DNA of 64,000 nt, taken from NCBI GenBank assembly GCA_016699385.1, contig CP064974.1:259242-323241 (forward strand). Reading direction: 5' to 3'. The stretch's first letter is position 1, and the number at the start of each line of letters is the position of its first letter. Source of the stretch: Candidatus Moraniibacteriota bacterium. Its GTDB lineage: Bacteria; Patescibacteriota; Minisyncoccia; Moranbacterales; UBA1568. Positions 14,519-63,931 of this stretch are shown one piece after another. The notes beneath the pieces are model-generated. The model saw nothing but the letters and a program-made list of their open reading frames with translations, was not told the DNA's origin and did not search any database. The position numbers and the translations under genes were made by a program.

Positions 14519-14572
14519 AGTGTATTTCAAGTATGGATAGATCTTTAACAACCTGAAAATGAGGTGACTTTG

Positions 14573-16516
14573 ATGAAGGCGAGATTCATAATCGTTTTCT
14601 TATTTGCAATGTTTGCATGGACGAATGCTCACGCGCAATATTGTCATGAGGGCATCCCTGGCGGTTGCCAGTGCGTTGCTTTTGCCTATGACAATGGCTA
14701 TAGCGATTTTTTTGGTACAGGATATGCCAAAAATTGGTATGGTGCCGCCAATGGGAAAGGCTATTCCACAGGGCATGTTCCCATGGTTGGTGCTGTAATA
14801 GTGTTCGATTCGTGGGGTAAGAGTGCCGCTGGTCACGTCGCTATTATTGCGAGTATTGCGAGTAGCAGTGAAATCGCTGTGAATCATGCAAACTGGGCGC
14901 CAAACGGAGCGACGGATGACAGAATTTATAGAAGTGTTTCTGTCAAAGACCTCTCTGGAGGAAACTGGACGAGCGTTTCTGTATACGGCTCCGGATCCTA
15001 TCCGGTTCTCGGTTTCATCTACTCCAAAGACGCCAACCTTGGTTTCCCTGCCACTGAATGTTCTCAAGTGAGTGCAACTCAGTATATCTGCTGGCTCACT
15101 AAGAATGGTGTTGACCGCTCTTGTGAAAATGCGACCGCATGGGGTATTGAAGATAGTGTGGCTCATATGAGCCAACCCGCAGATTGGAGTATTTGTTCGA
15201 CGTCGTGCTATGACAGTCAGTCATCAGCCCTGGATTTCTTAATTTCTCCTGTCTATGCTACTGGAACGATTAGTTCCTGCGCTAAGCAAGTGATTTCAAC
15301 CGATCATCTTGAGACTTCCATTCCCCCTCCCATCACCGGAGGCAAACACCCGGGCGACCTCCCCAATCTCATCGTTCACGAACTGTATCTGGTGAAAGAA
15401 GCCGATAGGGACAGCCCGCATCTTTCCCAAATCCATATCGGAGAACGAAGCTACTGCAACATCCAGGTCAAGAATACCGGAGAAGCCGGAGCTTGGGGCA
15501 CCTGGGCGAATCGCTGCTACTTGTCCAAAGGAAACTATCGTGATCACGATCCCGACAACCTGGGACACGAGAGCATGACTGATTTGTCGGCGGGACAATC
15601 CCGTCGAGTCTATCAAATCATTCCCGCTTTCGAATATCCGGGAAAGTTCAATATCACTGCCTGTGCAGATACGGATGGCAATGACGGCGACAAAAAGATT
15701 GCGGAATCTGATGAAGGAGACAACTGCCATGACGAATATCGTTTTGACGTGGTAAGTGATCCGAATCTTGCGACGATGGCAATCAGTCTTACTGGCATTG
15801 TCGGAAACCCCGTAATCAATCAGCCTTTCAATATTTCTTCAACCACAACCAATCTGGGAGAAAACTTCGGACCCGACTATGTCTATATCGGCTATTTCGT
15901 AGACGGAGAACTGGTGGGACAAAACCAAATCCGTCGCGAAAACATGAAAGGAGGGATGAGCAAAGCGGAAGAAATCCCCATCCACGGAGGTATTGCAACG
16001 GCCGGTGTCCACGAAATCAAAGCGTGCGCTGACTTTACGGACGATATCGTCGAGACGAACGAATCGGACAATTGCAGGATACTTCTGGTCAATGTGACTG
16101 CGCCCGTTTCTCCGATTTTGTCGATAAACGGAGTAGTTCTCGCAAACGGCACCCGCCACGTCTTCACCGACGAGCGTCCGGACATTTCCATCAGTATCGG
16201 AAATACCGGAGGCATCTCGTCTCCCATGACTGGCGAAGTATTCATTTCATCGGCTCCTCATGGGGTAGAGAATATCTCCCTGGGGACATTCCAAGTCGGC
16301 GCAGTACCCGAAGGGGGAAATGCCACTGGGACGCTTTCGGGCGTTTCGTTTACCAAGCTCGGTCCATGGGTGTTGACGGCGTGTATCGAAGGGATGACAA
16401 CCTGCACTTCAGGGGATGTCGTCACCATTGAGAGCAGCCACCCGGTAAACAAACATGTGAATCCGGCAGTCCTTATGATACTCAACAAACACAGGCGTGA
16501 GAGGAGTAGGAGATGA
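14573..16516 (+). CDS. Secreted CHAP-domain peptidoglycan hydrolase with three CARDB-like repeats
   Basis: After a signal peptide, CHAP motifs are present (..GGCQCVAFAY.. Cys and ..AAGHVAII.. His). Three repeats follow, each ending in a D/E-x-N-C (CARDB-like) motif: NCHDEYRFDV, ESDNCRILLV, and others. An RBS gaggtg lies 7 nt upstream of ATG 14573. Confidence 0.75.
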   Translation: MKARFIIVFLFAMFAWTNAHAQYCHEGIPGGCQCVAFAYDNGYSDFFGTGYAKNWYGAANGKGYSTGHVPMVGAVIVFDSWGKSAAGHVAIIASIASSSEIAVNHANWAPNGATDDRIYRSVSVKDLSGGNWTSVSVYGSGSYPVLGFIYSKDANLGFPATECSQVSATQYICWLTKNGVDRSCENATAWGIEDSVAHMSQPADWSICSTSCYDSQSSALDFLISPVYATGTISSCAKQVISTDHLETSIPPPITGGKHPGDLPNLIVHELYLVKEADRDSPHLSQIHIGERSYCNIQVKNTGEAGAWGTWANRCYLSKGNYRDHDPDNLGHESMTDLSAGQSRRVYQIIPAFEYPGKFNITACADTDGNDGDKKIAESDEGDNCHDEYRFDVVSDPNLATMAISLTGIVGNPVINQPFNISSTTTNLGENFGPDYVYIGYFVDGELVGQNQIRRENMKGGMSKAEEIPIHGGIATAGVHEIKACADFTDDIVETNESDNCRILLVNVTAPVSPILSINGVVLANGTRHVFTDERPDISISIGNTGGISSPMTGEVFISSAPHGVENISLGTFQVGAVPEGGNATGTLSGVSFTKLGPWVLTACIEGMTTCTSGDVVTIESSHPVNKHVNPAVLMILNKHRRERSRR

Positions 16517-17769: not shown

Positions 17770-19155
17770 ATGCAAAAGAAATACCAAACGAAGGAGGCAG
17801 TTATCAATGAAGCGAGGAAGATATTGAATCAATCCCTGCGGAGTTTGATGTCTAAAGATGATATTGATGCAGTTGAAAAGCGTCTTAACTCCTATGGTAC
17901 AAATCGGAAGGGATTTCTTGGCGGACTCGTTGAAGAGTTTGTATTTGGTCTCAGTGTAAACAATAATTCAGAAGCTGATTTCAAGATAGCGGGAGTCGAA
18001 TTAAAAACAAATCCACTTAAGAGCCATCCTACAAAGGTGTATATCTCAAAGGAGCGTCTTGTTTTCTCCCTGATTAATTACGATGAAATTGTTCAGGAGA
18101 CGTGGGAAACAAGCTCTTTCCTTAAGAAGAATAGAGTTCTTCTTATACTATTCTATTTATGGATGAAGGAGCAGAGTCTTCTTGATTATAAATTCAAATT
18201 TGTTTACTTGATGAATTTACTTGAAGATATATCGGATGTTGATATCTTTCAGATACGTAAAGATTGGGAGTATATAGTTGCGAAGATAAGACGGGGAGAG
18301 GCGCATCTTCTATCTGAAGGTGATACGTATTATCTCGGAGCGTGTACGAAAGCTGCGAATAGCCAGATTGTCCGCGAACAGCCGAACAATCGAATTCCAG
18401 CTAAACCTCGAGCATTCTCTCTCAAGCAACAGTATTTAAACTATATTATCCAGAAGGAGCTTCTCGGAAAGGATATTGAGACGGATTCTATTTTTAAGAA
18501 GACGCGGCGAATTGAAAGTGTTGATGATGCTTTTAAGGAAAAATTGAGACCTTACATCGGAAAGACTGACAAGGAGATTATTCAGGAGATTGGTTGGAAG
18601 GGAGCGACGAAAGCGAAAAATTATAGAAGGATACTCGTAAATAAGATGCTCGGGGTATCTTCAAATAGGATTGAAGAGCTTGAGAAAGCGAATGTCACGC
18701 TTAGAGTGGTAACTCTTGAACACACGGGTTCTCTCAGGGAATCCATATCATTTCCAGCCTTTGATTATAATGAACTTGTCATACAGGAATGGGAGAATGA
18801 AGAGGATGGAACTATGACGGACTTTCATTTGGCACTTGAAACAAGGAGATTTCTTTTCATAGTCTTCCAGAAGATTGTGGGAAGTAGTGAAATCGTTCTT
18901 AAAAAAATTAAGTTTTGGAATTTCCCAATGAAAGATATGACTGAAGCAAAGCGTGTGTGGGAGAAAGCTGTTGAATGTGTGAGGGAAGGGCACTATGGAG
19001 ATTTACCAAAAATGAGCGAGAGTGCCATTGCGCACGTAAGACCACATGGGAAGGATTTGACGGATACTCTTGAAACGCCACAAGGAACGCGTGAAGTAAA
19101 GCGATGTTTTTGGTTGAATGCAAATTATATACGAAGAGTGGTAGAGGATGACTAA
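17770..19155 (+). CDS. Type II restriction endonuclease, MutH/Sau3AI family (probable GATC specificity)
   Basis: The 461-aa protein carries ..EADFKIAGVELKTNP.., which matches the MutH/Sau3AI D-(x)n-E-x-K catalytic signature (DF..GVELKT). It lies immediately upstream of a C5-methyltransferase. Confidence 0.7.
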   Translation: MQKKYQTKEAVINEARKILNQSLRSLMSKDDIDAVEKRLNSYGTNRKGFLGGLVEEFVFGLSVNNNSEADFKIAGVELKTNPLKSHPTKVYISKERLVFSLINYDEIVQETWETSSFLKKNRVLLILFYLWMKEQSLLDYKFKFVYLMNLLEDISDVDIFQIRKDWEYIVAKIRRGEAHLLSEGDTYYLGACTKAANSQIVREQPNNRIPAKPRAFSLKQQYLNYIIQKELLGKDIETDSIFKKTRRIESVDDAFKEKLRPYIGKTDKEIIQEIGWKGATKAKNYRRILVNKMLGVSSNRIEELEKANVTLRVVTLEHTGSLRESISFPAFDYNELVIQEWENEEDGTMTDFHLALETRRFLFIVFQKIVGSSEIVLKKIKFWNFPMKDMTEAKRVWEKAVECVREGHYGDLPKMSESAIAHVRPHGKDLTDTLETPQGTREVKRCFWLNANYIRRVVEDD

Positions 19156-19228
19156 TCTAAGCCGTAGTTGATCAATTTTCAGTACTCTGCTACCATTGTT
19201 GTTGTGGCGTTTAACTACCTTTCTTGGT

Positions 19229-20509
19229 ATGAAGAAGATACGAATTGTTGAATTGTTTGCTGGAGTTGGAGGATTTCGTCTTGGTCTTGATGCTGCAAGT
19301 AGAAAAGATTGCAAATATGAGGTTGTCTGGAGTAGCCAGTGGGAACCTGACGCTAAGATGCAGCACGCTTCCGGTATTTATGTTCACAAGTTTGGATCTA
19401 AAGGTCACTCATGTGAAGATATACGACAAGTAGTCGAGAAAAAATTTGAAGAAATAGTAGACCATGATTTGCTTGTTGGAGGTTTCCCGTGTCAGGATTA
19501 TTCCGTTGCAAGGACATTGAGTCGAGCTGAAGGCTTGAAAGGAAAGAAGGGAGTTCTTTGGTGGTCGATATTTGATATTCTGAAGAAGAAGGGGAAAAAA
19601 GCTCCTCGATTTCTTATGTTGGAGAATGTTGATCGGTTGTTGAAATCGCCAGCATCACAGCGTGGACGCGATTTCGCAGTCATGCTTTCTTCTCTTGCTG
19701 ACCTTGGTTATGCAGTTGAATGGCGGATTATAAATGCGGCAGAATATGGATTTCCGCAGAGGAGAAGACGCGTTTTTATTCTTGGGTATAAAAAGGGTAC
19801 AAACCTGTATACAACAGTGAATTCTGAGAAAATGAAGTCAGATTGGTTGCAAAGTAATGGCGTTATAGCAAAGGCATTTCCTGTTGAGAAATCTACTAAT
19901 AGTGCCCGTGAATTTCTTATTGAAGGAGATTTTGCTGAGGTGACAAAGAATTTTTCAGTCGGAGGTCCAGCGAAAAGTCCGTTTGAGAATTCCGGGCTGA
20001 TGATTAATCGAAAAGTCTATACATTGAAGACGATTCCAAAGCAGTCGAAGCATAAGATTATTCTTGGAGATATAATTGAGACTGACGAGAAGAAGATTCC
20101 AGATGTCTTTTTTGTAGATGATAATGAGATAAAGGAATGGGAGTATTTGAAGGCAGGAAAAAAAGAACGACGAGAGACAAAGACTGGGCATGTATACCAT
20201 TATTCGGAAGGGTCGATGATTTTCCCTGACTCATTAGAGAAACCATCACGTACAATCGTAACTGGTGAAGGAGGACGTTCCGCATCGAGGTTTAAGCATG
20301 TTATTAGAACAAACTCTGGGAGACTCCGCCGATTGATGCCAATAGAACTTGAGAGGCTCAATATGTTTCCTGATAATCACACGCGGTTTATGGGGGAAGG
20401 ACTGGAAGTTTCTGATGTGAAGCGAGCGTTTATTATGGGAAACGCACTTGTTGTTGGTGTCATTAGAGAGCTTGGGAAGTCTCTTCGAAAAGCTATTGAA
20501 AAAGAATAA
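19229..20509 (+). CDS. DNA (cytosine-5)-methyltransferase (type II R-M modification subunit)
   Basis: Motifs I (ELFAGVGGFRLG), IV (GGFPCQDYS), VI (LMLENV) and VIII (QRRRRVFILG) are all present. Confidence 0.9.
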   Translation: MKKIRIVELFAGVGGFRLGLDAASRKDCKYEVVWSSQWEPDAKMQHASGIYVHKFGSKGHSCEDIRQVVEKKFEEIVDHDLLVGGFPCQDYSVARTLSRAEGLKGKKGVLWWSIFDILKKKGKKAPRFLMLENVDRLLKSPASQRGRDFAVMLSSLADLGYAVEWRIINAAEYGFPQRRRRVFILGYKKGTNLYTTVNSEKMKSDWLQSNGVIAKAFPVEKSTNSAREFLIEGDFAEVTKNFSVGGPAKSPFENSGLMINRKVYTLKTIPKQSKHKIILGDIIETDEKKIPDVFFVDDNEIKEWEYLKAGKKERRETKTGHVYHYSEGSMIFPDSLEKPSRTIVTGEGGRSASRFKHVIRTNSGRLRRLMPIELERLNMFPDNHTRFMGEGLEVSDVKRAFIMGNALVVGVIRELGKSLRKAIEKE

Positions 20510-27854: not shown

Positions 27855-30386
27855 ATGTCTGAACGACCGAAAGCGACGAAATTTGTGTTTGATTCCTACG
27901 ACTTTTCTCTCGAGGAGAGAAAAGCGTCTTTTGTGTATCGGATGGAATTTGAGAATCGGGAGCCAATGGTGTTTACTGATGCACTCCTTTTTCCGGGGTT
28001 GCCGGAAACAGTGGCTGCCTCAGAATCATTGATTGATGCGGTGCTGCAAGGAGTGCATATCGCTCTTGGTGTGAGTTACTACAAACTTTCGTGTCCGGAA
28101 CATATCGAGGTGACCCATGCGCTTTCAGAGAAGCAAGCGAACTTTTGGAATACTGTCTATCGCAAAGGACTGGGTGAATTTTTCTTTCGAAATAATCTTG
28201 ATCCGCGAGGGAGAATATCGTTTCCATATGATGCGACTCTCTCCCGGGGAAGCTATGGCGCTCATCCCGAAGACCGTGCGCTTCTCGGCATTGGTGGTGG
28301 CAAAGACTCCATCGTCGCCGGAGAACTCCTCAAAGAAATGAAGTATGAAACGACGGCATTTCTTTTTGAAACAGGGAGTCCGGTACCGCTCATTGAAAAC
28401 GTCGTTGAGACGATGGGTATTCCAACAATGAAGGTGCAACACTTCCTTGATCCGCAGGTCTTTGATGGTTATGACGGGGCGTACAATGGGCATGTGCCTT
28501 TCTCGGCGCTCGTTGCATGGGTGGGATATCTTTCGGCGGTTCTCGGTGGATATCGATATGTCATTGTGGGAAATGAGCGGAGCAGTAATATCGGCAATGT
28601 CGAGTATCTCGGTGAAACAGTAAATCACCAATGGAGCAAGTCTCTTGAATTTGAGACGATGTTTCAGGAGTATTCGCGAGCATTTTTGTCGCCGGATATA
28701 ACGTATTTTTCACTGCTTCGCCCGTTTTACGAAATTCGGATTGCAGAGATGTTTGCTTGTCATGAGAAATATTTTTCTTCTTTCTCAAGTTGCAATCGGA
28801 GTTTCAAAGTACACCAAAGGCGTTCGGAAACGCTCTGGTGTGGCGAGTGTGCGAAGTGTGCTTTTGTTTTTCTCTTACTCTCGGCATTTCTCGAAAAGCA
28901 GAACGTGCTGGAAATTTTCGGTAAGAATCTCCTTGATGATGAGTCTCTTCTCCCGCTCTTTGGCGATATTTTGGGCTTTGGTTCGATGAAGCCGTTTGAC
29001 TGCGTGGGCACGGTTGAGGAGGCTCGTGCGGCACTCTTTCTTTCAAATGAACATTTCGGCGAGAGTCGCATTGCGAAAGAATTCCTTGTGAAGATTGAAC
29101 ATCCGGAATCGCTTGTTCGCGATGTAATGAAACTGCACTCGGCGCGGGCGGTTCCGGCGGATTTCCTCTTTTCGGGCGCGAAGAATGTGCTGATTCTCGG
29201 ATATGGTCGAGAAGGGAAGGAGACCGAGCGTTATCTGAAGCAGTATAAACCACATCTTGATATCGGAATTGCGGACAAAAGTCTCGATGCTTCGTATCTC
29301 GACCAGCAGAAGGGCTATGATATCGCTGTCAGGACTCCCGGCATATCGAGGCGATTGGTGATGATTCCCTCTACGACAGCGACCAATATATTTTTTTCTC
29401 GCGTGCGAAATCTTACGATTGGTGTGACTGGGACAAAGGGTAAGAGTACGACGGCGTCTCTGATTGACTCTATTCTTCGTGTAGCAGGGAGGAAGTCGCG
29501 GCTCCTTGGGAATATCGGACAGCCGCTTCTCTCTGCGCTTCTTGCTCCGCTTGATCCAGAGACAGTCATCGTGGCAGAGCTGTCGAGTTACCAGCTTGAG
29601 GATATTCAGTATTCACCGCATATCGCGGTTGTACTCAATCTCTTCTCTGATCACATGGATTATCACGGAAATGTGGAATCCTATCATGAGGCAAAGCGAA
29701 ACATCCTTCGGTTTCAAAATGAACGCGACTTCGCAGTGTACAACGGGCACGATGAAAAGCTTTCTGCGTGGGTGAGTCAGGGCAGTGCAAAGGCGATTCG
29801 TTTTGATATTCTAGAGAATGAGGTATACGAATCTTCGCTCTTGGGGACGCACAATGTAGAGAATATTCGTGCGGCGGTTGCAGTTGCGCATCTTCTCAAT
29901 ATTCACGAAGAAGCAATTCGAGAAGGTATACGGACATTTGTTCCGCTTCCGCATCGACTTGAACGTGTCGGCAAATTTCGGGGCGTCACGTTCTATGATG
30001 ATGCAATTTCGACAACGCCGGAATCGACGCAAGCAGCGCTCGAAGCGATACCAAATGTTTCAACGATTTTCCTCGGTGGTGAAGATCGAGGCTATGATTT
30101 TTGTGGACTTGAACAAACGATTCGCGAATGTGGCGTGAAAAATATAGTTCTCTTTCCGGAGAGTGGAAAGCGAATACTTTCTTCAACTGACGGCGTCACT
30201 GTCCTTGAGACGAGAAGTATGGAAGAAGCAGTTCGTTTTGCCTATGAGAAGACACCAGCTGGTTCGACGTGTCTTCTTTCAACTGCTTCGCCAAGCTATT
30301 CTCTCTGGAAAAACTTCGAGCAAAAGGGTGATGAATTCCAACAATGGGTTCGAAAACTCGGCGAAGAGAAAGCCTTGTCGGATTGA
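27855..30386 (+). CDS. murD: Fusion protein: N-terminal PP-loop-like (GGGKDS) ATP-pyrophosphatase-type domain plus C-terminal UDP-N-acetylmuramoylalanine--D-glutamate ligase (MurD-type Mur ligase)
   Basis: The C-terminal half has the MurD Rossmann N-domain (VLILGYGREGKE..), Mur ligase P-loop (GVTGTKGKSTT) and ..NLFSDHMDYHG... The N-terminal ~390 aa has an LGIGGGKDS PP-loop-like motif and a CGECAKC cluster. Confidence 0.75.
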   Translation: MSERPKATKFVFDSYDFSLEERKASFVYRMEFENREPMVFTDALLFPGLPETVAASESLIDAVLQGVHIALGVSYYKLSCPEHIEVTHALSEKQANFWNTVYRKGLGEFFFRNNLDPRGRISFPYDATLSRGSYGAHPEDRALLGIGGGKDSIVAGELLKEMKYETTAFLFETGSPVPLIENVVETMGIPTMKVQHFLDPQVFDGYDGAYNGHVPFSALVAWVGYLSAVLGGYRYVIVGNERSSNIGNVEYLGETVNHQWSKSLEFETMFQEYSRAFLSPDITYFSLLRPFYEIRIAEMFACHEKYFSSFSSCNRSFKVHQRRSETLWCGECAKCAFVFLLLSAFLEKQNVLEIFGKNLLDDESLLPLFGDILGFGSMKPFDCVGTVEEARAALFLSNEHFGESRIAKEFLVKIEHPESLVRDVMKLHSARAVPADFLFSGAKNVLILGYGREGKETERYLKQYKPHLDIGIADKSLDASYLDQQKGYDIAVRTPGISRRLVMIPSTTATNIFFSRVRNLTIGVTGTKGKSTTASLIDSILRVAGRKSRLLGNIGQPLLSALLAPLDPETVIVAELSSYQLEDIQYSPHIAVVLNLFSDHMDYHGNVESYHEAKRNILRFQNERDFAVYNGHDEKLSAWVSQGSAKAIRFDILENEVYESSLLGTHNVENIRAAVAVAHLLNIHEEAIREGIRTFVPLPHRLERVGKFRGVTFYDDAISTTPESTQAALEAIPNVSTIFLGGEDRGYDFCGLEQTIRECGVKNIVLFPESGKRILSSTDGVTVLETRSMEEAVRFAYEKTPAGSTCLLSTASPSYSLWKNFEQKGDEFQQWVRKLGEEKALSD

Positions 30387-53554: not shown

Positions 53555-55270
53555 CTACAAGGTGGCAATAAATTTTTCAAAAAACGGCAATTCCGTAAAC
53601 AGCACTCGTTCATGTACCGGCATTTGTTTGTAGGTCAGTTTTTGAGAATTTTGGGCGTGCACCGGCACAAGAATAGTGTCTAAAGGATACGCGTGATATT
53701 CGCTTTCGGTCAAAATTTTGCTAATACAAAGCGGTACCTCGGCGATACAAACCTTATACTCTTTACCATCATAAAACACCATACAGTTTCGACGCAGAGC
53801 CGTTCTGTCATCCTCGCCATCCAAAAGAGCGAGTATTTTTTCAGGACCAAGACATGTAGCTGCTTGTTTGGAGTTCGCTCCCGGAAAACCATTCAGAGCA
53901 TTGATAAATATCCCTCCATCGGTAACGATAACAGGGTGTTTGAGAATGCTATAACTCTTTCTCGCTTTATCTTTTGCAATCTCAATAATATCATCGTGTT
54001 TTATTTCGGTAATATCGACATTCGCCAAATGAAGCGTATGCTCTGTGCATTTGCTTTGCAATTCCAACACCTTCGTGGCACTACTCGTGGCAAAATATAA
54101 AGATCGGGCTGTTGGTTTGTGAAAAACCAGAACACTCACTCGGTGAGTATCGGATCCGCTGTATGACACAGTGACCAAACCGAGTTCCGCGAGAATGTCT
54201 CTAAGCCACTCTCTCTCCAGTTGATTTTTCTGCATTCTCCCTGCATCATCGTTATTGGAAATGTTGCTGATATAGTCAAAAACGAGATAGCCGTCCGGAG
54301 TGAGAGATTCCGCCATCACTGAAAGTGTCGGCAATATATCGCTCCTGTGCATGTGTGACAGCACGACTCCGCGCGAAGTGATCAGTCCATATCTCTCCTT
54401 TTCGCCCGAAAAAATACCACTCTCAAAACGAACACGCGCATCAGTTGTTTTTTCTGTCGCAACGCGAACCATTTCAGGACTAATATCCATGCCGAGAATA
54501 TCGGAGATGGTGCTATTTTCAGCAATCAATCTCGTTACTGCGCCATCCCCGCAACCAATATCCAAAGCTGATCCCGACACAAGCGGCAATATGCGCCGTA
54601 CCTCGGTATCGAAACGATCATACCCATTTTCGTGATTCACATATGAAGTTTCATCCTCGCGTATTGATTGCCAGTTTTCAGCTCGTCCGTCCCAACGACT
54701 GGCGACATGAGCATTGTGTTTTTCTCGATTTTTCTCTACCTCTTCAATATGTTTCACGAGTTTTGCAAAAGCCTTTCCTCGATGATTTTCTTCCACGCCA
54801 AGCGCACCGAGTGAAGCACGATTGATTTGCACCAACACATCAAGCGTGAGCGGAGTATTCGAGTCAAGATGCTCATAGCGCGTCGTACCGCGCACTTCCC
54901 CGCGAAACACATGGCAGTCAAAGCCGTCAAAATATCCGATAAAGCATGTTACGGTCACGGAAGTGTTGGTCGGCAAAAATTGAGGCAGTGTTGCGAGCGT
55001 GCTGTTTTTGAGAAGATGCTTGATCAGCGCTCCGGGATACGTATCCGACCCCACCGTGAGAGAGACATCGTCCACGATGAAGGGCATCATGGTCGTTTTC
55101 CGTATCTCCGCCATTTTTTCAAGTATCACTTCCTCTCCGTTTACCGACTGTATTTCTTTCGTCTCCGCCGATTTTGGAACAATTTCAAAAAGATGAGCGG
55201 GCACGGTTTTCTGCAGTTCCCGATATTGATTCAACTTTTTCTGATTTTCCGAAATACAGTACAGCTTCAT
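53555..55270 (-). CDS. Tripartite fusion: partial Ham1/ITPase-like N-domain, class I SAM-dependent methyltransferase, and a full Ham1/ITPase (non-canonical purine NTP pyrophosphatase) domain
   Basis: The N-terminus has ..KLYCISENQKKLNQ.. and ..FIVDDVSLTVGSDTYPGALIK.. (Ham1-like). The middle has ..LDIGCGDGAVT.. (SAM MTase motif I). The C-terminus has ..FYFATSSATKVLELQ.. and ..IVTDGGIFINALNGFPGANSKQ.. (second Ham1 domain). Confidence 0.6.
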   Translation of the reverse strand: MKLYCISENQKKLNQYRELQKTVPAHLFEIVPKSAETKEIQSVNGEEVILEKMAEIRKTTMMPFIVDDVSLTVGSDTYPGALIKHLLKNSTLATLPQFLPTNTSVTVTCFIGYFDGFDCHVFRGEVRGTTRYEHLDSNTPLTLDVLVQINRASLGALGVEENHRGKAFAKLVKHIEEVEKNREKHNAHVASRWDGRAENWQSIREDETSYVNHENGYDRFDTEVRRILPLVSGSALDIGCGDGAVTRLIAENSTISDILGMDISPEMVRVATEKTTDARVRFESGIFSGEKERYGLITSRGVVLSHMHRSDILPTLSVMAESLTPDGYLVFDYISNISNNDDAGRMQKNQLEREWLRDILAELGLVTVSYSGSDTHRVSVLVFHKPTARSLYFATSSATKVLELQSKCTEHTLHLANVDITEIKHDDIIEIAKDKARKSYSILKHPVIVTDGGIFINALNGFPGANSKQAATCLGPEKILALLDGEDDRTALRRNCMVFYDGKEYKVCIAEVPLCISKILTESEYHAYPLDTILVPVHAQNSQKLTYKQMPVHERVLFTELPFFEKFIATL

Positions 55271-57634: not shown

Positions 57635-58054
57635 GTGATTATGAAAAATCTATTTTGGAAAATCTACAGTATTCTTATAGCGAGCATAATTGTTGTTGCA
57701 ATTATTGCAGGCGTTCTTTTTTTTGGCGGACAGTTGCGAGTGAATTCTTTTATTGGTTTGCTTTTGGTTCTTCCGGCACTCGTACCTCCTATTGGTCTTA
57801 TCGCCTTCGCATGGGGAAAACCGATTGGTTGGTTATGGATGTGGAAAATGTTTGTATGGATACTTAGTGTTATTAGCGCTTTGGAATTTATTGGTAGGAT
57901 CATAAACATGGTAAATCAGGATGACTCTTGTTTTGGCGCATGGTGTTACATTACTGAACCGCTTTCCATAGCATTTGGGCTACCTCTTGTTATTGGACTC
58001 TATCTTTACGCCTATCGGAGCCAAGAAATTTGGAAGGTAAAACAACCTTCATGA
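57635..58054 (+). CDS. Hypothetical membrane protein
   Basis: The 139-aa protein has four hydrophobic helices. Confidence 0.5.
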   Translation: MIMKNLFWKIYSILIASIIVVAIIAGVLFFGGQLRVNSFIGLLLVLPALVPPIGLIAFAWGKPIGWLWMWKMFVWILSVISALEFIGRIINMVNQDDSCFGAWCYITEPLSIAFGLPLVIGLYLYAYRSQEIWKVKQPS

Positions 58055-58725
58055 ACTCCGCTGACTTTCGAACTGCCACGTTTCAAGATCTTCAAAAAAT
58101 CCCCACCAGCGAAAATGGGGAGACTTTGGTTGAGGCAAATACTTTTGATTACTCCATAATCTGTGAACATGTCCAGCGCGATATGGAAGGTTTCACTGGA
58201 GAAAAGGTATTCGTCCGCGAAGGATTGGCGCATCGACTTGCAAAAGCAAATGTTTTCCTTAAAACCAAGAATCCCGAATACTGCTTGCGGATCGTTTACG
58301 GATACCGCCACCCAGTTGTTCAAGAAAAATACTTTTCCGAAATGCGGCAGGTTGTCGCAAAAGAACATCAAGAACTTGATGAAAGCGAAATTATTTCCTT
58401 GACGCACAACTTCATTGCCGTCCCGGAAGTAGCAGGGCACCCAACTGGAGGAGCTGTGGATGTCACGATAGCGACAGCATCGGGCAATCTCGATATGGGG
58501 ACGGATATATCTGATTTTAGTCGCGCGGATGCTATCAAAACCTTTGCAAAAGGGATCTCTTTTGAGGCGCTTTCTAATCGACTTCTTCTTCGCGATGCGA
58601 TGGTGTCTGCCGATTTTGCACCATTCTACGGAGAATGGTGGCACTTTTGCTTTGGTGATCGAGAATGGGCGTTTTTTTATGAGAAACATGCTTCGTTATA
58701 TTCGCCGATTCGGTTTCAGATATAG
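58051..58725 (+). CDS. ddpX: D-alanyl-D-alanine dipeptidase (VanX/DdpX, peptidase M15D)
   Basis: VanX motifs are present (..IVYGYRHP.., S-x-H-x2-G-x-A-x-D as ..AGHPTGGAVDV.., and EWWHF). Confidence 0.8.
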   Translation: MNSADFRTATFQDLQKIPTSENGETLVEANTFDYSIICEHVQRDMEGFTGEKVFVREGLAHRLAKANVFLKTKNPEYCLRIVYGYRHPVVQEKYFSEMRQVVAKEHQELDESEIISLTHNFIAVPEVAGHPTGGAVDVTIATASGNLDMGTDISDFSRADAIKTFAKGISFEALSNRLLLRDAMVSADFAPFYGEWWHFCFGDREWAFFYEKHASLYSPIRFQI

Positions 58726-60532: not shown

Positions 60533-62521
60533 ATGGGAAAAACCTTGCAAAAAAAAGATCTTTATTGTATTTCAATAAATTTGAACAATAATGCTCAAGG
60601 TATTGTTAATGCCTGTAATATCAATGATGTTTCTCAGGGATACGACAGATTTAAGAAACTTTCTTGTGTAGAAGAGGTGGTAATTTTGCAAAAATGTAAT
60701 TGCACGGAGATTTTTATTTGGGGAACTTTTGATTTGGGAAAAATTGTAGAGACATGGAAATCTGTTAGCATTGATCCGGATGGTTTTGGTGAATCTGACA
60801 TTACCATTTACCGCGAGAACAAGTGTGTCGAACATCTCTTGCAGGTGTCTTCTGGATTGAAGAGCGTGACTGTTGGGGATGGTCAGGTGCTTGGGCAAGT
60901 TCGACTCGCTTTGACAAATAGTAAAAAATTTAAAGCCTCCGGTCCGGTTATGGAGGTTCTTTTCCGGTCGGCTAAAAAAGTAGCGCTTTTAGTAAAAGAG
61001 AAGACATCTATAGGAATCGGAAATGTTTCAGTTGGTCGACAAGCGGTAGAATTGCTTCAGAATGTAAACGGCGACCAATCTCAACGTATTCTGATTGTCG
61101 GGTGTGGGGCTATGGGAAATCTCATTGTGAATGTTCTGCATGAAAAAGGTTTTGAATGTGTTGATGTTACAAATAGAACAGCATTCCGAGCAAATAGGTT
61201 AATTGAAGCTGGAGTAGCAAGAACTAGAATTGAGTTTAGTGAATACCTTGACAAAATAGAGGGATATGATGCTGTTTTTTTCTGTCTCTCGAGTGTTCTT
61301 TCTTACGAAGAAGCAGAGAAAATAAATGCATTGTCTCATATACCAAAAATTATTGATGTTGGAAATCCACAAAACACAATTCTGCTCGCATCTCTGAATA
61401 AAAGCGCGTATATCTATTCGATAGCGACCATAAAAAAGCTGACTGCCCAGCGATATCGAGATTGGGTAGCTCAAATTGAGAAGGCAAATGAGATTATTAG
61501 AGAAAATGTTAATGAGGTGTATCGTGCTATAGAAAAAGAATTAATAAATGTGGAAGTTGGCTTAAATTTGGAACTGAGCAAAAAGAGGCTTAATAAAAAC
61601 TTGGCACATATTGCTTTTTTGAGAAGTATTTTCGAAAAAGGTTTTCGAGACTATCTACAGGAAAAGAAGGGTTACACTGAAGTTCATACTCCATATATTG
61701 TGCCGATATCAACTGATCCGCCAAGGAACAATGCGAGTGAGGAATTATTTTCTGTTCAGTGGTACGAAAGGAAGCTTTTTCTGCGACAGTCTAACCAAAT
61801 GTATAAACAAATGCTTGTCTTATCTGGGATGAAGAGAATTTTTGAGTACGGACCATTTTGGCGTGAAGAAGCGAGTCCTACCGCAAGGCACTTATCAGAA
61901 GCATGGGGACTTGATGTTGAAATGCAATTGAAAAAAAACGAAGGAATTGAAATTTTGCTTTCTGCTGCCGGAGAAATACTTCATTTTTCGTCGAAGAGGT
62001 TGTTGGAAAAGCAACTTATTGTGCAAGAGGATATTATTGCAAAAGAAATTCAGTCCATAAGTTATGACGAGGTATTTGAGATAGTAACTGCTCATATTGA
62101 TACTGATTATTCGTATGGGGATGACCTTGGTTATAGTAGAGAGTATGAAATTGCAAATCTCTTAAAAGAGAGTCGTGGCTGGGATATTTTTGCAATTGTT
62201 CATTATCCGAACCTGACGAAAAAGTTTTATACGAAAGAGGTAGACGAACACTACACAGAGTCTTTTGATATCATTTATAGGGGTTGGGAGATTTGTTCTG
62301 GCGCCGTACGCGAGACGGATGTCTCTCGCATTATTGAGAGGATGAAGACATCAGGTATAAACCCTGAAAACTTTCGCTTCTACCTTGATTATTTTATGGT
62401 GCCAACTTCGCATGGCGGTTTTTGTCTTGGAATTGATCGGGTTATTGCAAAATTGCTCGAGTGTAGTACTGTCGAAGATGTCGTATTGTTCCCAAGAAGC
62501 CAGACGCATATTATTCCTTAA
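60533..62521 (+). CDS. Chimeric protein: glutamyl-tRNA reductase (HemA) catalytic and NADPH domains fused to an archaeal/eukaryal-type class IIb aaRS (AspRS/AsnRS/AsnA-like) catalytic core that lacks the anticodon-binding domain
   Basis: Residues 1-330 match HemA: ..VVILQKCNCTEIFIW.. (compared with TCNRTE and its catalytic Cys), ..HLLQVSSGLKSVTVGDGQVLGQVRLAL.. (compared with [24 protein letters not shown]), and Rossmann ..ILIVGCGAMGN... Residues ~350-662 match a class II core: ..GYTEVHTPYIV.., ..LRQSNQMYKQ.., motif 2 ..GPFWREEASPTARHLSEAWGLDVEM.. and motif 3 ..GGFCLGIDRVIAKLL... Confidence 0.6.
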   Translation: MGKTLQKKDLYCISINLNNNAQGIVNACNINDVSQGYDRFKKLSCVEEVVILQKCNCTEIFIWGTFDLGKIVETWKSVSIDPDGFGESDITIYRENKCVEHLLQVSSGLKSVTVGDGQVLGQVRLALTNSKKFKASGPVMEVLFRSAKKVALLVKEKTSIGIGNVSVGRQAVELLQNVNGDQSQRILIVGCGAMGNLIVNVLHEKGFECVDVTNRTAFRANRLIEAGVARTRIEFSEYLDKIEGYDAVFFCLSSVLSYEEAEKINALSHIPKIIDVGNPQNTILLASLNKSAYIYSIATIKKLTAQRYRDWVAQIEKANEIIRENVNEVYRAIEKELINVEVGLNLELSKKRLNKNLAHIAFLRSIFEKGFRDYLQEKKGYTEVHTPYIVPISTDPPRNNASEELFSVQWYERKLFLRQSNQMYKQMLVLSGMKRIFEYGPFWREEASPTARHLSEAWGLDVEMQLKKNEGIEILLSAAGEILHFSSKRLLEKQLIVQEDIIAKEIQSISYDEVFEIVTAHIDTDYSYGDDLGYSREYEIANLLKESRGWDIFAIVHYPNLTKKFYTKEVDEHYTESFDIIYRGWEICSGAVRETDVSRIIERMKTSGINPENFRFYLDYFMVPTSHGGFCLGIDRVIAKLLECSTVEDVVLFPRSQTHIIP

Positions 62522-62533
62522 ATAGAAACCGTT

Positions 62534-63931
62534 ATGAAAACTTATAGAAGAAACGACTGTTCTATTGCTGAGAGTCGAGAATGTGTTGGAAAAAATATTA
62601 CACTTTCTGGGTGGGTGCACAGTCTTCGGTTGCATGGGAAGGTTGCTTTTTGTGATCTTCGTGACTTCTCAGGGAAAATTCAAGTTGTTTTTACTGGAAA
62701 AGTATTTGAGCAGATAAAAGAGGTTTCTCTCGAGTCAGTTATACAGGTTTCTGGAATCATTGTTGAACGGCAACAAAACTGCATCAATGCAAATCAACCT
62801 CTTGGCGACAGAGAACTTGTTGTGGAGACCCTTCGAGTCTTCGCATTGTCAACAGCTCTTCCATTCCCTGTCGACGATGACACGAGCAAAATAGATGAAT
62901 CTCTCCGTATGAAATATCGGTATCTCGATCTTCGATCAGATCGAATGCAGAGGAATATCCGGTCCCGCCATGAAGCTATGCTTTTTCTTCGGAACTATTA
63001 CAGTGAAAACGGCTTCTGTGAAGTGGAGACGCCTATGCTCACCAAAGGAACGCCGGAAGGTGCTCGGGAGTTCATTGTTCCTTCAAGGATTCATCGTGGG
63101 CAGTTTTATGTTCTCCCGCAATCTCCGCAACAATTCAAGCAGCTTCTCATGGTTTCCGGTATGGGGAAATATTTTCAAGTGGCACGGTGTTTTCGTGATG
63201 AAGATCAACGGCAGGATCGCCAGCCGGAATTTACTCAATTCGACATTGAAATGTCTTTTGCTGACGAGGGAGATGTTATGCAGACGGTTGAGGATTCCGT
63301 GAAAGCACTTGTTTCGAAAGTGTTTCCTGGTAAGAAGATTCTTGCTACACCATTTCCGCGAATGACCTACGCAGAATCGATTAAGAATTATGGTTGTGAT
63401 AAGCCGGATATGAGAAAAGGCGAGAATGATGATACTTTGGCATTTTGCTGGGTGACGGAATTTCCGCTTTTTGAGGAAGATAGCTCTTCAAAAAGCGGGA
63501 TTTCATCAGCGCATCACCCATTTACTATGCCACTTGACGAAGATATCCCTCGCATGAAAACTCATCCGCTCTCTGTTCGATCCACGGCATTTGATCTTGT
63601 TCTTAATGGGTATGAAATCAGCTCCGGGAGTGCCCGCATATATGATGCTAATCTGCAGAAGAATGTATTCGAGTTGCTTGGACTCGAAGAAGAAGAAATT
63701 CAGAACAAATTTGGGCATATGCTTCGGGCATTTTCCTTGGGTGTTCCGCCACATGCTGGGACGGGGCTTGGTATAGATCGTCTCTTCTCCACCATTCTTG
63801 GAGAGGGGAGTATTCGTGAAGTAATTGCTTTCCCAAAAACAGGCGAGGCAAAGGACTTGCTCATGGGTGCTCCAAGCGAGCTCTCTGATGAAACTTTGCA
63901 ACAAGCTTGGATTGAAAAACGGAAGAAATGA
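62534..63931 (+). CDS. aspS: Aspartate--tRNA ligase (bacterial type, compact, apparently without GAD insertion)
   Basis: An N-terminal OB fold, motif 2 ..FQVARCFRDEDQRQDRQPEFTQFDIEMSF.. and motif 3 ..GTGLGIDRL.. are present. The protein is 465 aa. Confidence 0.9.
   Translation: MKTYRRNDCSIAESRECVGKNITLSGWVHSLRLHGKVAFCDLRDFSGKIQVVFTGKVFEQIKEVSLESVIQVSGIIVERQQNCINANQPLGDRELVVETLRVFALSTALPFPVDDDTSKIDESLRMKYRYLDLRSDRMQRNIRSRHEAMLFLRNYYSENGFCEVETPMLTKGTPEGAREFIVPSRIHRGQFYVLPQSPQQFKQLLMVSGMGKYFQVARCFRDEDQRQDRQPEFTQFDIEMSFADEGDVMQTVEDSVKALVSKVFPGKKILATPFPRMTYAESIKNYGCDKPDMRKGENDDTLAFCWVTEFPLFEEDSSSKSGISSAHHPFTMPLDEDIPRMKTHPLSVRSTAFDLVLNGYEISSGSARIYDANLQKNVFELLGLEEEEIQNKFGHMLRAFSLGVPPHAGTGLGIDRLFSTILGEGSIREVIAFPKTGEAKDLLMGAPSELSDETLQQAWIEKRKK

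Follow-up and report, generated by a model that had tools for sequence, protein, structure and literature searches.

A fused MurL-MurD2 protein in Candidatus Moraniibacteriota, predicted to perform both steps of the alternative route to peptidoglycan D-glutamate

Here, we propose that a single open reading frame (ORF) of a Candidatus Moraniibacteriota bacterium (CPR/Patescibacteria) encodes a bifunctional enzyme that would perform both steps of the MurD2/MurL route to peptidoglycan D-Glu, a reading of sequence homology to which we assign a probability of roughly 80%. The route is known from Xanthomonas oryzae (Xoo), where MurL (XOO_1319) and MurD2 (XOO_1320) provide an alternative source of D-Glu (Feng et al. 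2017; PMC8788868; PMC5808125), and the fusion is a variant of this known pathway, not a new pathway. An earlier sequence-only reading of the window (the whole 64-kb stretch of DNA analysed) had raised the idea of a MurL-type epimerase fused to a MurD2-type ligase, and this idea is supported by a MurL profile match in the N-terminal half and by the C-terminal half, where four of the five positions that discriminate MurD2 from MurD carry the MurD2-type residue.

Results

The ORF runs uninterrupted from ATG to stop (Table 1) and holds all four motifs that the sequence-only reading had placed in one frame, namely GGGKDS, a Cys cluster (CGECAKC, residues 329-335), GTKGKST and DHMDYHG. The proposed domain limits needed revision: the two modules meet near residue 440 (nt ~29170) instead of near 29,050, and they measure ~437 aa (N-terminal) and ~403 aa (MurD), against the 390 and 450 aa first suggested. 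In a structural model of the full-length fusion (pLDDT 93.3, pTM 0.90; 94-96 at the junction), the protein is predicted to be a compact unit.

Table 1. Features of the fused MurL-MurD2 reading frame, in window coordinates.
Feature	Coordinates	Strand	Basis
Whole fused ORF, MurL (N-terminal) and MurD2-type ligase (C-terminal)	27855..30386	+	ORF listing: 843 aa and stop
MurL module	27855..29165	+	NF041275 E 2e-105; X. sacchari murL 35.5% identity; model pLDDT 95.1
MurL N-terminal sub-domain, ~aa 1-130 (boundary approximate)	27855..28244	+	Model secondary structure; Pfam MurL_N recorded on homologues
PP-loop (QueC-like) alpha/beta core, ~aa 135-345 (boundary approximate)	28257..28889	+	Foldseek and profile search against PDB
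PP-loop GGGKDS, aa 147-152, predicted ATP alpha/beta-phosphate binding loop	28293..28310	+	Motif position, conservation
Four-Cys cluster C313-x15-C329-x2-C332-x2-C335, predicted QueC-like Zn site	28791..28859	+	Invariance, QueC layout
Cys383 in KPFDCVG, candidate catalytic thiol	29001..29003	+	Invariance
MurD2-type Mur ligase module, aa 441-843: Rossmann N-domain, ATP-binding middle domain, C-domain	29175..30383	+	TIGR01087 256.5 bits
Mur ligase P-loop GTKGKST, aa 526-532; K530 = E. coli K115	29430..29450	+	Motif position, column mapping
DHMDYHG, aa 599-605; D599 = E. coli D182 / Xoo MurD2 E197; H600 = catalytic H183	29649..29669	+	Column mapping
I718 = E. coli K319 position, MurD2-like	30006..30008	+	Column mapping; Ile in X. 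sacchari MurD2
R745 = E. coli K348 / Xoo MurD2 R358 position, MurD2-like	30087..30089	+	Column mapping
P813-S814-Y815 = E. coli A414-S415-L416 / Xoo MurD2 P433-S-F435, MurD2-like	30291..30299	+	Column mapping

A database search with the full-length protein returned fusions in all of the best 120 matches (811-885 aa, coverage at least 97%). These come from NCBI, JGI, ENA and Logan assemblies and share the same junction with conserved junction residues; the best of them, 97% identical and also from Candidatus Moraniibacteriota, is named in NCBI as a D-glutamate ligase only, and one fusion lies in a closed genome of 1.09 Mb (CP064989.1, GCA_016699875.1), where the neighbourhood around it is syntenic. 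Thus the misassembled gene boundary that had been considered for this locus is not what we find. That the long ORF is an artefact, whether through loss of a stop codon, through a frameshift or through the misassembly of two genes, has a negligible probability given the junction shared by 120 of 120 matches, its conserved residues and its high model confidence, even if a two-gene arrangement prevails among relatives outside Parcubacteria, some of which are a single in-frame stop away from fusion.

The fused form is the norm in Candidatus Moraniibacteriota and common in Patescibacteria, where it is not unusual. A search with the N-terminal half alone (best match 55% identity, fusions in 13 of 120) was set aside as a selection artefact, the full-length search having given the 97% identical fusion. 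Among 80 MurL loci in a genome scan, tblastn coverage suggested at least 60 fusions, of which an ORF-level check left nine true single-ORF fusions. MurL and MurD are adjacent or fused in 61 of these 80 related loci and lie within 0.6-3.4 kb of one another in five more; the split loci mostly have ATGA-type or other short overlaps, with six parted by a single in-frame stop. In Xanthomonas, murL precedes murD2 with a 20-nt overlap, a gene order identical to the domain order of the fusion. The pair, split or fused, is present in many genomes of Patescibacteria, Clostridia, Bacilli, Bacteroidales, Acidobacteriota and Myxococcota, and the fusion arose at least three times. Some MAG titles may be mislabelled (“uncultured Gammaproteobacteria” for L007, L009 and L011, amid CPR-like sequences) and were not relied on.

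By sequence, the N-terminal domain is homologous to MurL over its full length. Its match to the MurL model NF041275 spans residues 4-435 (profile 4-437 of 447), with a score of 353 bits that lies under the NCBIfam equivalog cut-off of 700 bits, a threshold tuned to Xanthomonadales. The comparison with Xanthomonas MurL suggested earlier bears out homology from end to end, the PGAP-annotated murL of Xanthomonas sacchari matching over 99% of the query, and homologues of this half have Pfam MurL_N and MurL_epimerase_C on record. The N-terminal sub-domain is modelled as three long strands followed by helices. The MurL invariants (the GGKDS loop, H213, E241, H258, K262, R289, C313, C329, C332, C335 and C383) are all kept in the window protein, in 119-120 of the 120 fusions and in X. 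sacchari MurL, each being common to the fusions, 78 stand-alone MurLs and Xanthomonas MurL.

The predicted fold of MurL matches the PP-loop ATP pyrophosphatases, and best QueC. The top Foldseek matches of the model are TtuA, QueC, Cap9, NcsA, MnmA, NAD synthetase and argininosuccinate synthase; the E-values for the core are modest (about 1e-3; TtuA 6e-4), with a probability of 1.0 for QueC (3bl5, TM 0.56) and Cap9 (9nto, TM 0.64), both TM-scores being target-normalised. A MurL profile searched against PDB sequences found PP-loop enzymes only, aligned on the loop (TtuA, E 5.5e-4, along with MnmA and NadE), and this sequence evidence for PP-loop membership is confined to the loop region. Together, the structural and profile matches support the assignment of MurL as a PP-loop enzyme, which the sequence-only reading had left unconfirmed. 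Membership of the QueC family by sequence was rejected as too weak, hhalign of the MurL profile against E. coli QueC having covered the PP-loop alone (E 0.016, probability 2.8%). A phmmer search of PDB sequences with the MurL half gave no meaningful match, so that no MurL structure is on deposit.

The GGGKDS loop follows a strand at residues 139-145 of the model and lines up with the SGGKDS and SGGVDS loops of TtuA and MnmA, respectively, its first residue being Gly in MurL versus Ser in the SGGxDS-type loop. G148, G149, K150 and S152 are invariant in the 78 stand-alone MurLs and the 120 fusions and are common to Xanthomonas MurL, as is Cys383. The CxxCxxC cluster noted earlier is present, yet it belongs to a larger four-Cys pattern that all 120 fusions and Xanthomonas MurL carry without exception. 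The spacing in E. coli QueC (C188-x8-C197-x2-C200-x2-C203) is comparable, at a similar distance from the PP-loop, and by analogy the four cysteines of MurL most likely hold a structural zinc.

The PP-loop enzymes QueC, NAD synthetase and asparagine synthetase form amides or nitriles from adenylated carboxylates. Hence a MurL-like module with such a fold might perform some other adenylation-dependent reaction on the stem peptide, such as amidation of the Glu alpha-carboxylate to iso-glutamine, and both the ~35% identity to the Xanthomonas enzyme and the sub-cut-off NCBIfam score leave room for a different activity. We regard this as very improbable: the match to Xanthomonas MurL runs end to end and includes every invariant residue, the L-Glu-type signature of the partner ligase is sensible only if an epimerase follows, and Pfam and NCBIfam found no glutaminase or ammonia-donor domain in the ORF.

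The C-terminal part is a MurD-type Mur ligase, as first described, with a TIGR01087 (MurD model) score above the curated cut-off of 211.95 bits, a Pfam Mur_ligase_M match at E 6e-26 and S. agalactiae MurD (3lk7, E 2e-56) as its best PDB sequence match. TIGR01087 fails to separate MurD from MurD2, because the window protein passes its cut-off while carrying R745 and I718. The module is 32.5% identical to MurD2 of X. sacchari and 30.3% identical to MurD of E. coli, and the catalytic residues K530, N553, H600 and K614 are kept.

Residues were numbered by column mapping anchored on E. coli K115, H183 and K198. A pairing of E. coli K348 with the NDSKATN motif was ruled out, that Lys being K319 and K348 sitting in GGDGKSADF. 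At I718, R745, P813 and Y815 the ligase fits the X. sacchari MurD2 pattern (I, R, P and an aromatic F) versus K319, K348, A414 and L416 in E. coli, so that the Lys348 and Lys319 of canonical MurD are both replaced; the MurD2 signature sought by the sequence-only reading is present at these four positions and absent at the fifth, where Asp599 is the canonical-MurD residue and Xanthomonas MurD2 has Glu. In a set of 67 MurL-linked MurDs the K348 position is Arg in 65 of 65, as it is in all 120 fusions, while Lys occupies the K319 position in none of either set (0/65 and 0/120); position 813 is Pro in 120/120 fusions and position 815 is Tyr in 119/120. Of the best 120 fusions, 102 have Glu at position 599 and the other 18 have Asp. 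The five closest relatives (74-97% identity; P0121-P0125) all have Asp, which is thus fixed in the clade of the window protein, and among the 67 MurL-linked MurDs it appears again in 10, spread over several lineages.

These positions bear on which glutamate isomer is added. With K319T, E. coli MurD becomes able to accept L-Glu (PMC8788868), and E197 and R358 control the stereospecificity of Xoo MurD2 (PMC8788868; PMC5808125), in which E197D alters stereospecificity and E197D/R358K yields a D-Glu ligase (PMC8788868). In Streptococcus mutans, the MurD residue that corresponds to Arg358 of MurD2 is likewise Arg, and this enzyme ligates D-Glu and takes L-Glu only slightly (PMC8788868). Because the clade combines Asp599 with Arg745, its ligase might accept both isomers, in which case D-Glu salvaged from a host or the environment would also be used and MurL would correct the L-Glu products only. 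The effect of E197D, the S. mutans precedent and the fixation and recurrence of Asp599 all favour such relaxed or dual stereospecificity. We nevertheless consider it improbable, as the four other MurD2-type positions are strictly kept (with Lys319 lost) and nothing in the MurL module points to decay, an argument for L-Glu products as the main flux.

The absence of a glutamate racemase from the window, as stated by the sequence-only reading, was upheld. With E. coli queries for MurI, IlvE (class IV aminotransferase) and MurD, phmmer against the full set of 312 six-frame ORFs (80 aa or longer) matched the fused ORF alone, giving no MurI, IlvE or second MurD, and Pfam scans of 30 further window ORFs contained neither Asp_Glu_race nor Aminotran_4. 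In the closed relative CP064989.1, the syntenic stretch of 22.5 kb likewise has no glutamate racemase or D-amino-acid aminotransferase. Among CPR bacteria, an active glutamate racemase is reported for at least one, which weighs against the proposed route. An upstream amidohydrolase was considered as a D-aminoacylase for D-Glu supply; it has only a sub-threshold match to NF006560, a generic model for amidohydrolases, and no link is claimed. Its position is conserved in two relatives.

Discussion

In light of the homology of both halves, what might the fused protein do? After addition of L-Glu by the ligase, the MurL module would bind a second ATP on its GGGKDS loop, as both the Xanthomonas homology and the fold suggest, and would adenylate the alpha-carboxylate of the terminal L-Glu, with AMP released at the end of the cycle. 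Xoo MurL requires ATP and Mg2+, yields AMP and works in the L-to-D direction only (PMC8788868; PMC5808125), and unidirectional ATP- and Mg2+-dependent epimerisation is known only from the enzymes of Xanthomonas, Micromonospora and Salinispora (PMC8788868). The PP-loop fold and the QueC-like Cys4 layout fit this published ATP-to-AMP chemistry; the same reports describe AMP formation by Xoo MurL and do not mention PPi or an adenylate intermediate (PMC8788868; PMC5808125). More speculatively, Cys383 may serve as a base or as a thioester nucleophile.

The fusion probably derives from ancestral, translationally coupled and overlapping murL-murD2 genes whose proteins became joined without a linker. 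It would ensure a 1:1 stoichiometry of MurL and MurD2, and the L-Glu intermediate is probably passed directly between the two active sites.

A broader picture can be sketched, tentatively and with rather less confidence than the bifunctional assignment itself. MurL may be an adenylating PP-loop enzyme akin to QueC, with a Zn(Cys)4 site in a structural role, epimerising via an acyl-adenylate and possibly a Cys383 thioester; in Patescibacteria it may form a channelling unit with MurD2; the pathway may be a major one across CPR bacteria, gut Clostridia and Bacteroidales; and in the Asp599 clade the ligase may be relaxed and also use scavenged D-Glu.

Set beside the Xanthomonas pair, both halves are homologous end to end and in the same order. 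The N-terminal half shares the PP-loop, the Cys4 cluster, Cys383 and the other invariants of MurL, and the ligase shares the Arg (R358), the Pro and aromatic pair (P433, F435) and the loss of Lys319 of MurD2. The differences are that the window protein is a single polypeptide with no linker, at 33-36% identity, that it has Asp599 in place of Glu197 (which matters for L-Glu specificity), and that its host is a CPR bacterium, unlike the taxa listed in the literature as having MurL and MurD2. With canonical MurD it has in common the three-domain Mur ligase fold, the P-loop, the equivalents of His183 and carbamoylated Lys198, and Asp at position 182, whereas the substitutions relative to E. coli (Lys319 to Ile, Lys348 to Arg, Ala414 to Pro, Leu416 to Tyr) and the covalent link to MurL set it apart.

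QueC and Cap9, the best target-normalised structural matches to the MurL core, catalyse reactions that start with carboxylate adenylation and have AMP as a product. As in these enzymes, the PP-loop opens the core and a C...C-x2-C-x2-C cluster follows ~170-180 residues downstream. Unlike them, MurL adds a ~130-aa N-terminal domain and a ~90-aa C-terminal helical region, its loop starts with Gly instead of Ser, similarity beyond the loop is not significant, and the outcome would by analogy be epimerisation as opposed to amide or nitrile formation. Fusions of consecutive cytoplasmic enzymes of peptidoglycan precursor synthesis have precedents in MurC-Ddl (NF011171) and MurE-MurF (NF008896), which differ in their partner enzymes and both lack an epimerase.

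Our literature search found no PP-loop assignment of MurL, no MurL-MurD2 fusion and no MurL in CPR bacteria. Reviews describe MurL as being without known conserved domains and its mechanism as unclear (PMC8788868; PMC5808125); the PP-loop/QueC-like assignment, the Cys4 site and the invariant Cys383 offer concrete targets for mutation. The consequences of the fusion itself are modest, and as a natural single-chain construct it would be handy for structures of both steps. MurD2 and MurL have been considered confined to a few genera, and hence a narrow-spectrum drug target (PMC8788868; PMC5808125), a premise weakened by the wide spread of the pair. For the CPR bacteria, metabolic reconstructions will miss this source of D-Glu and may record the wrong substrate.

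A single-chain MurL-MurD2

Here, we show from homology, conserved motifs, fold, linkage and signature residues that the window protein unites MurL and MurD2 in one chain, as a variant of the pathway described in 2017. A sequence-only reading had placed a PP-loop-like domain ahead of a MurD, and all four motifs that it reported are found in the one ORF. The N-terminal half matches the NCBIfam MurL profile NF041275 (E 2e-105, 353 bits; residues 4-435 against profile positions 4-437 of 447), and the C-terminal half is indeed a MurD-type ligase, scoring 256.5 bits with TIGR01087 (murD, NCBIfam; residues 479-833) against a cut-off of 211.95. Because of these match ranges, we correct the module sizes from the 390 and 450 aa of that reading to ~437 and ~403 aa, and the boundary from 29,050 to ~nt 29170. 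Pfam matched only the Mur ligase middle and C-terminal domains (residues 524-809), the N-terminal half being left empty because MurL_N (PF26299) and MurL_epimerase_C (PF26298), the Pfam names recorded for the locus of the homologue P0124, are absent from the version scanned.

Positions of the fusion, its motifs and the upstream amidohydrolase
Feature	Position	Strand	Remark
MurL-MurD2 fusion	27855..30386	+	single ORF, 843 codons
GGGKDS	residues 147-152 of fusion		motif search
CGECAKC	residues 329-335 of fusion		motif search
GTKGKST	residues 526-532 of fusion		motif search
DHMDYHG	residues 599-605 of fusion		motif search
Amidohydro_3 protein, 532 aa	26112-27710	+	144 nt upstream of fusion

The suggested kinship with Xanthomonas MurL is borne out: a tblastn search of a plasmid collection with the N-terminal half led to a 508-kb Xanthomonas sacchari replicon, whose murL, annotated by PGAP, shares 35.5% identity across 99% of the query. 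There, murL is followed by murD on the same strand with a 20-nt overlap, so that the Xanthomonas gene order equals the domain order of the fusion, although the two are separate genes in X. sacchari and one polypeptide in the window. MurL (XOO_1319) turns the L-Glu product into the D-Glu product, in the L-to-D direction only, using one ATP and forming AMP; the stereospecificity of MurD2 is governed by Glu197 and Arg358 (E. coli MurD Asp182 and Lys348), Pro433 and Phe435 likewise differ from E. coli Ala414 and Leu416, and E. coli MurD K319T accepts L-Glu (PMC8788868, PMC5808125).

A lone MurL-like gene (32-33% identity, 88-97% coverage) also occurs on three Pseudonocardia plasmids. On one of these (pFRP1-2, NZ_CP010991.1; locus L003, 3959-5353) it is annotated as hypothetical, has no MurD neighbour and adjoins integrases and a WD40 protein; it may be a MurL homologue serving another purpose.

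The MurD2 signature

The ligase half, aligned with E. coli MurD and X. sacchari MurD2 (numbering verified at K115, N138, H183 and K198), keeps the catalytic K530, N553, H600 and K614. At the positions that discriminate MurD2 from canonical MurD (E. coli D182, K319, K348, A414 and L416), the window protein has D599, I718, R745, P813 and Y815, and X. sacchari MurD2 has Glu, Ile, Arg, Pro and Phe. The proposed MurD2 signature is thus present at four of the five positions and fails at D599, the canonical MurD residue.

Among 67 MurDs fused to or adjoining MurL in species-representative genomes, position 348 is Arg in all 65 readable cases; Lys never occurs at position 319, which is occupied by I, L or F; Tyr or Phe stands at position 416 in 62 of 65; and position 182 divides into 57 Glu and 10 Asp. 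The best 120 of 2,884 proteins matched by the full-length query, all of them fusions, have Arg348 and Pro414 in all 120, Tyr416 in 119, Ile319 in 114 (Lys in none), and Glu (102) or Asp (18) at position 182. Asp stands here in each of the five proteins closest to the window protein (74-97% identity). Among MurL-linked ligases, Asp599 is therefore a minority state that recurs and is fixed within its clade, and it does not turn the window protein into a canonical MurD. Because E197D changed the specificity of Xanthomonas MurD2 (PMC8788868), the ligase half may, with Asp599, have a relaxed specificity.

Distribution and origin of the fusion

The fusion is real, common and has arisen repeatedly. 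The whole 843-aa query retrieved 2,884 proteins at E <= 1e-20, and the best 120 all have 811-885 aa, coverage of at least 97%, and a Mur ligase plus two MurL Pfam domains. The best match (P0121, 97% identity) is from a Candidatus Moraniibacteriota MAG, with further fusions from Moranbacteria, Uhrbacteria, Parcubacteria, Paceibacterota and “Patescibacteria group”. The 97% identical homologue did not turn up in a word-indexed protein search run with only the N-terminal half, so nearest-match identities from that tool can be badly underestimated. P0124 (76% identity) lies in a closed 1,088,644-bp genome (CP064989.1) and has the same neighbourhood as the window: GT2, GalT, TPI, FBA, GAPDH, amidohydrolase, fusion, malic enzyme, TrxR, CbiM, GT4 and GatB.

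One genome was scanned per species, and the 80 resulting loci, sorted by ORF, comprise 9 single-ORF fusions, 52 directly adjacent pairs (49 murL-then-murD, 3 reversed), 5 with the genes 0.6-3.4 kb apart, and 14 with murD alone within the stretch examined. Split pairs usually overlap by 4 nt (ATGA) or slightly more. In six (L010, L011, L013, L017, L020 and L025), both genes share a reading frame with a single stop (TAG, TAA or TGA) between them and a start codon 1-37 nt after it; these are one substitution short of fusion. Nearest-neighbour comparison of each half reveals at least three independent fusions, in Parcubacteria/Moraniibacteriota, Peribacteria and Bacteroidales, the latter two groups of fusions being nearest to split pairs of their own taxon.

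The pair is also present, either split or fused, in MAGs that bear the labels Clostridia, Oscillospiraceae, Lachnospiraceae, Bacilli, Erysipelotrichales, Mycoplasmatota, Bacteroidales, Acidobacteriota, Myxococcota, Vitreimonas and Lysobacterales (labels accepted as recorded, some of which appear unreliable), a much wider range than the genera of the literature (PMC8788868).

MurL as a predicted PP-loop enzyme

The PP-loop idea for the N-terminal domain is backed by structure, loop alignment and cysteine layout. An AlphaFold2 model of residues 1-440, from 78 stand-alone MurL sequences, has a mean pLDDT of 95.1 and pTM of 0.94, and its top 21 Foldseek matches in the PDB are all PP-loop ATP pyrophosphatases (E 6e-4 to ~1.6e-2, probability 0.85-1.0), namely TtuA, QueC, QueC-like Cap9, a Methanocaldococcus PP-loop protein (3k32), NMN/NAD synthetase, MnmA, NcsA and argininosuccinate synthase (target-normalised TM-score 0.56 for QueC, 0.64 for Cap9). 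Independently of the model, an HMM of the MurL alignment matched only PP-loop enzymes among PDB sequences (TtuA at E 5.5e-4, MnmA, NAD synthetase), the SGGxDS loop of each aligning on GGGKDS. Because the MurL profile matched a QueC sequence weakly (E 0.016), the predicted assignment draws support from fold, loop and cysteine layout, with global sequence similarity playing no part. We found no statement of it in the literature searched.

The invariant C313-x15-C329-x2-C332-x2-C335 of MurL lies ~166 residues past the loop, resembling C188-x8-C197-x2-C200-x2-C203 of E. coli QueC, ~179 residues past its loop. In the B. subtilis QueC structure, these four cysteines are zinc ligands. Since Xanthomonas MurL reportedly requires only ATP and Mg2+ (PMC8788868), we infer that a structural zinc fits the Cys4 site better than an oxygen-labile Fe-S cluster; Cys383 may also have a role. 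QueC-type enzymes adenylate carboxylates, in line with the adenylation mechanism proposed for MurL, whose reaction would pass through an adenylate intermediate.

Proposed working and other sources of D-Glu

From the inferred substrate specificity, the ligase module would add L-Glu, converting ATP to ADP. A full-length model from 125 fusion sequences has a pLDDT of 93.3 (94-96 over residues 430-450) and pTM of 0.90, and the MurD alignment of split homologues starts within ~5 residues of the junction; because of this junction confidence and MurD start, the two enzymes are predicted to join without a linker into a compact unit. Such a unit would be consistent with expression of the two modules at 1:1 and possibly with direct transfer of the L-Glu intermediate between them, a putative channelling.

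As the sequence-only reading held for glutamate racemase, murI is absent from the 64-kb window, as are dat and a second Mur ligase; murI and dat are also absent from the 22.5-kb syntenic stretch of the closed relative CP064989.1. CPR bacteria are not uniformly without MurI, because glutamate racemase activity is reported for Candidatus Saccharimonas aalborgensis. The upstream amidohydrolase keeps its position in Moraniibacteriota relatives (L014, L087), and its best NCBIfam match is the generic NF006560 (PRK09061; 184 bits, below the cut-off of 340), a family presumably once titled D-glutamate deacylase, which would give a D-Glu link.

Other features of the window

In a 662-aa ORF (60533-62521, +), an N-terminal glutamyl-tRNA reductase-like part (GlutR_N and Shikimate_DH; hemA TIGR01035, E 8e-47, residues 28-335) precedes a class II AspRS/AsnRS/AsnA-like catalytic core that lacks an anticodon-binding domain (NF003483, E 6e-70, residues 352-662). 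This architecture is odd in a CPR genome, where haem synthesis is not expected. Immediately after the ORF comes an ordinary class II synthetase that has an OB anticodon domain (62534-63931, +). A Peptidase_M15 protein (58030-58725, +) resembles D-Ala-D-Ala dipeptidase (VanX/DdpX-like), with matches under the cut-off (NF007557, E 6e-13), and a 570-aa ORF (53555-55270, -) combines a SAM-dependent methyltransferase (~220-340) with Ham1/ITPase (390-553). A MutH/Sau3AI-like endonuclease (461 aa) and a C-5 cytosine methyltransferase (437 aa) at 17770-20509 (+) are likely a restriction-modification pair; the GC content around 18-20 kb (0.40, against ~0.48 nearby), the lowest in the first 60 kb of the window, suggests acquired DNA. 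A 650-aa protein (14564-16516, +) that combines a CHAP peptidoglycan hydrolase domain at its N terminus with a CARDB domain is possibly a cell-wall-attacking enzyme of an episymbiont.

Significance

We found no description of the MurL-MurD2 fusion in the literature searched. Public databases already contain it in abundance under names that are half right, JGI calling some fusions a ligase and others an epimerase, each name covering one half. The fusion matters moderately: as an annotation correction, for a distribution much wider than published, and as a concrete structural and mechanistic handle on MurL.
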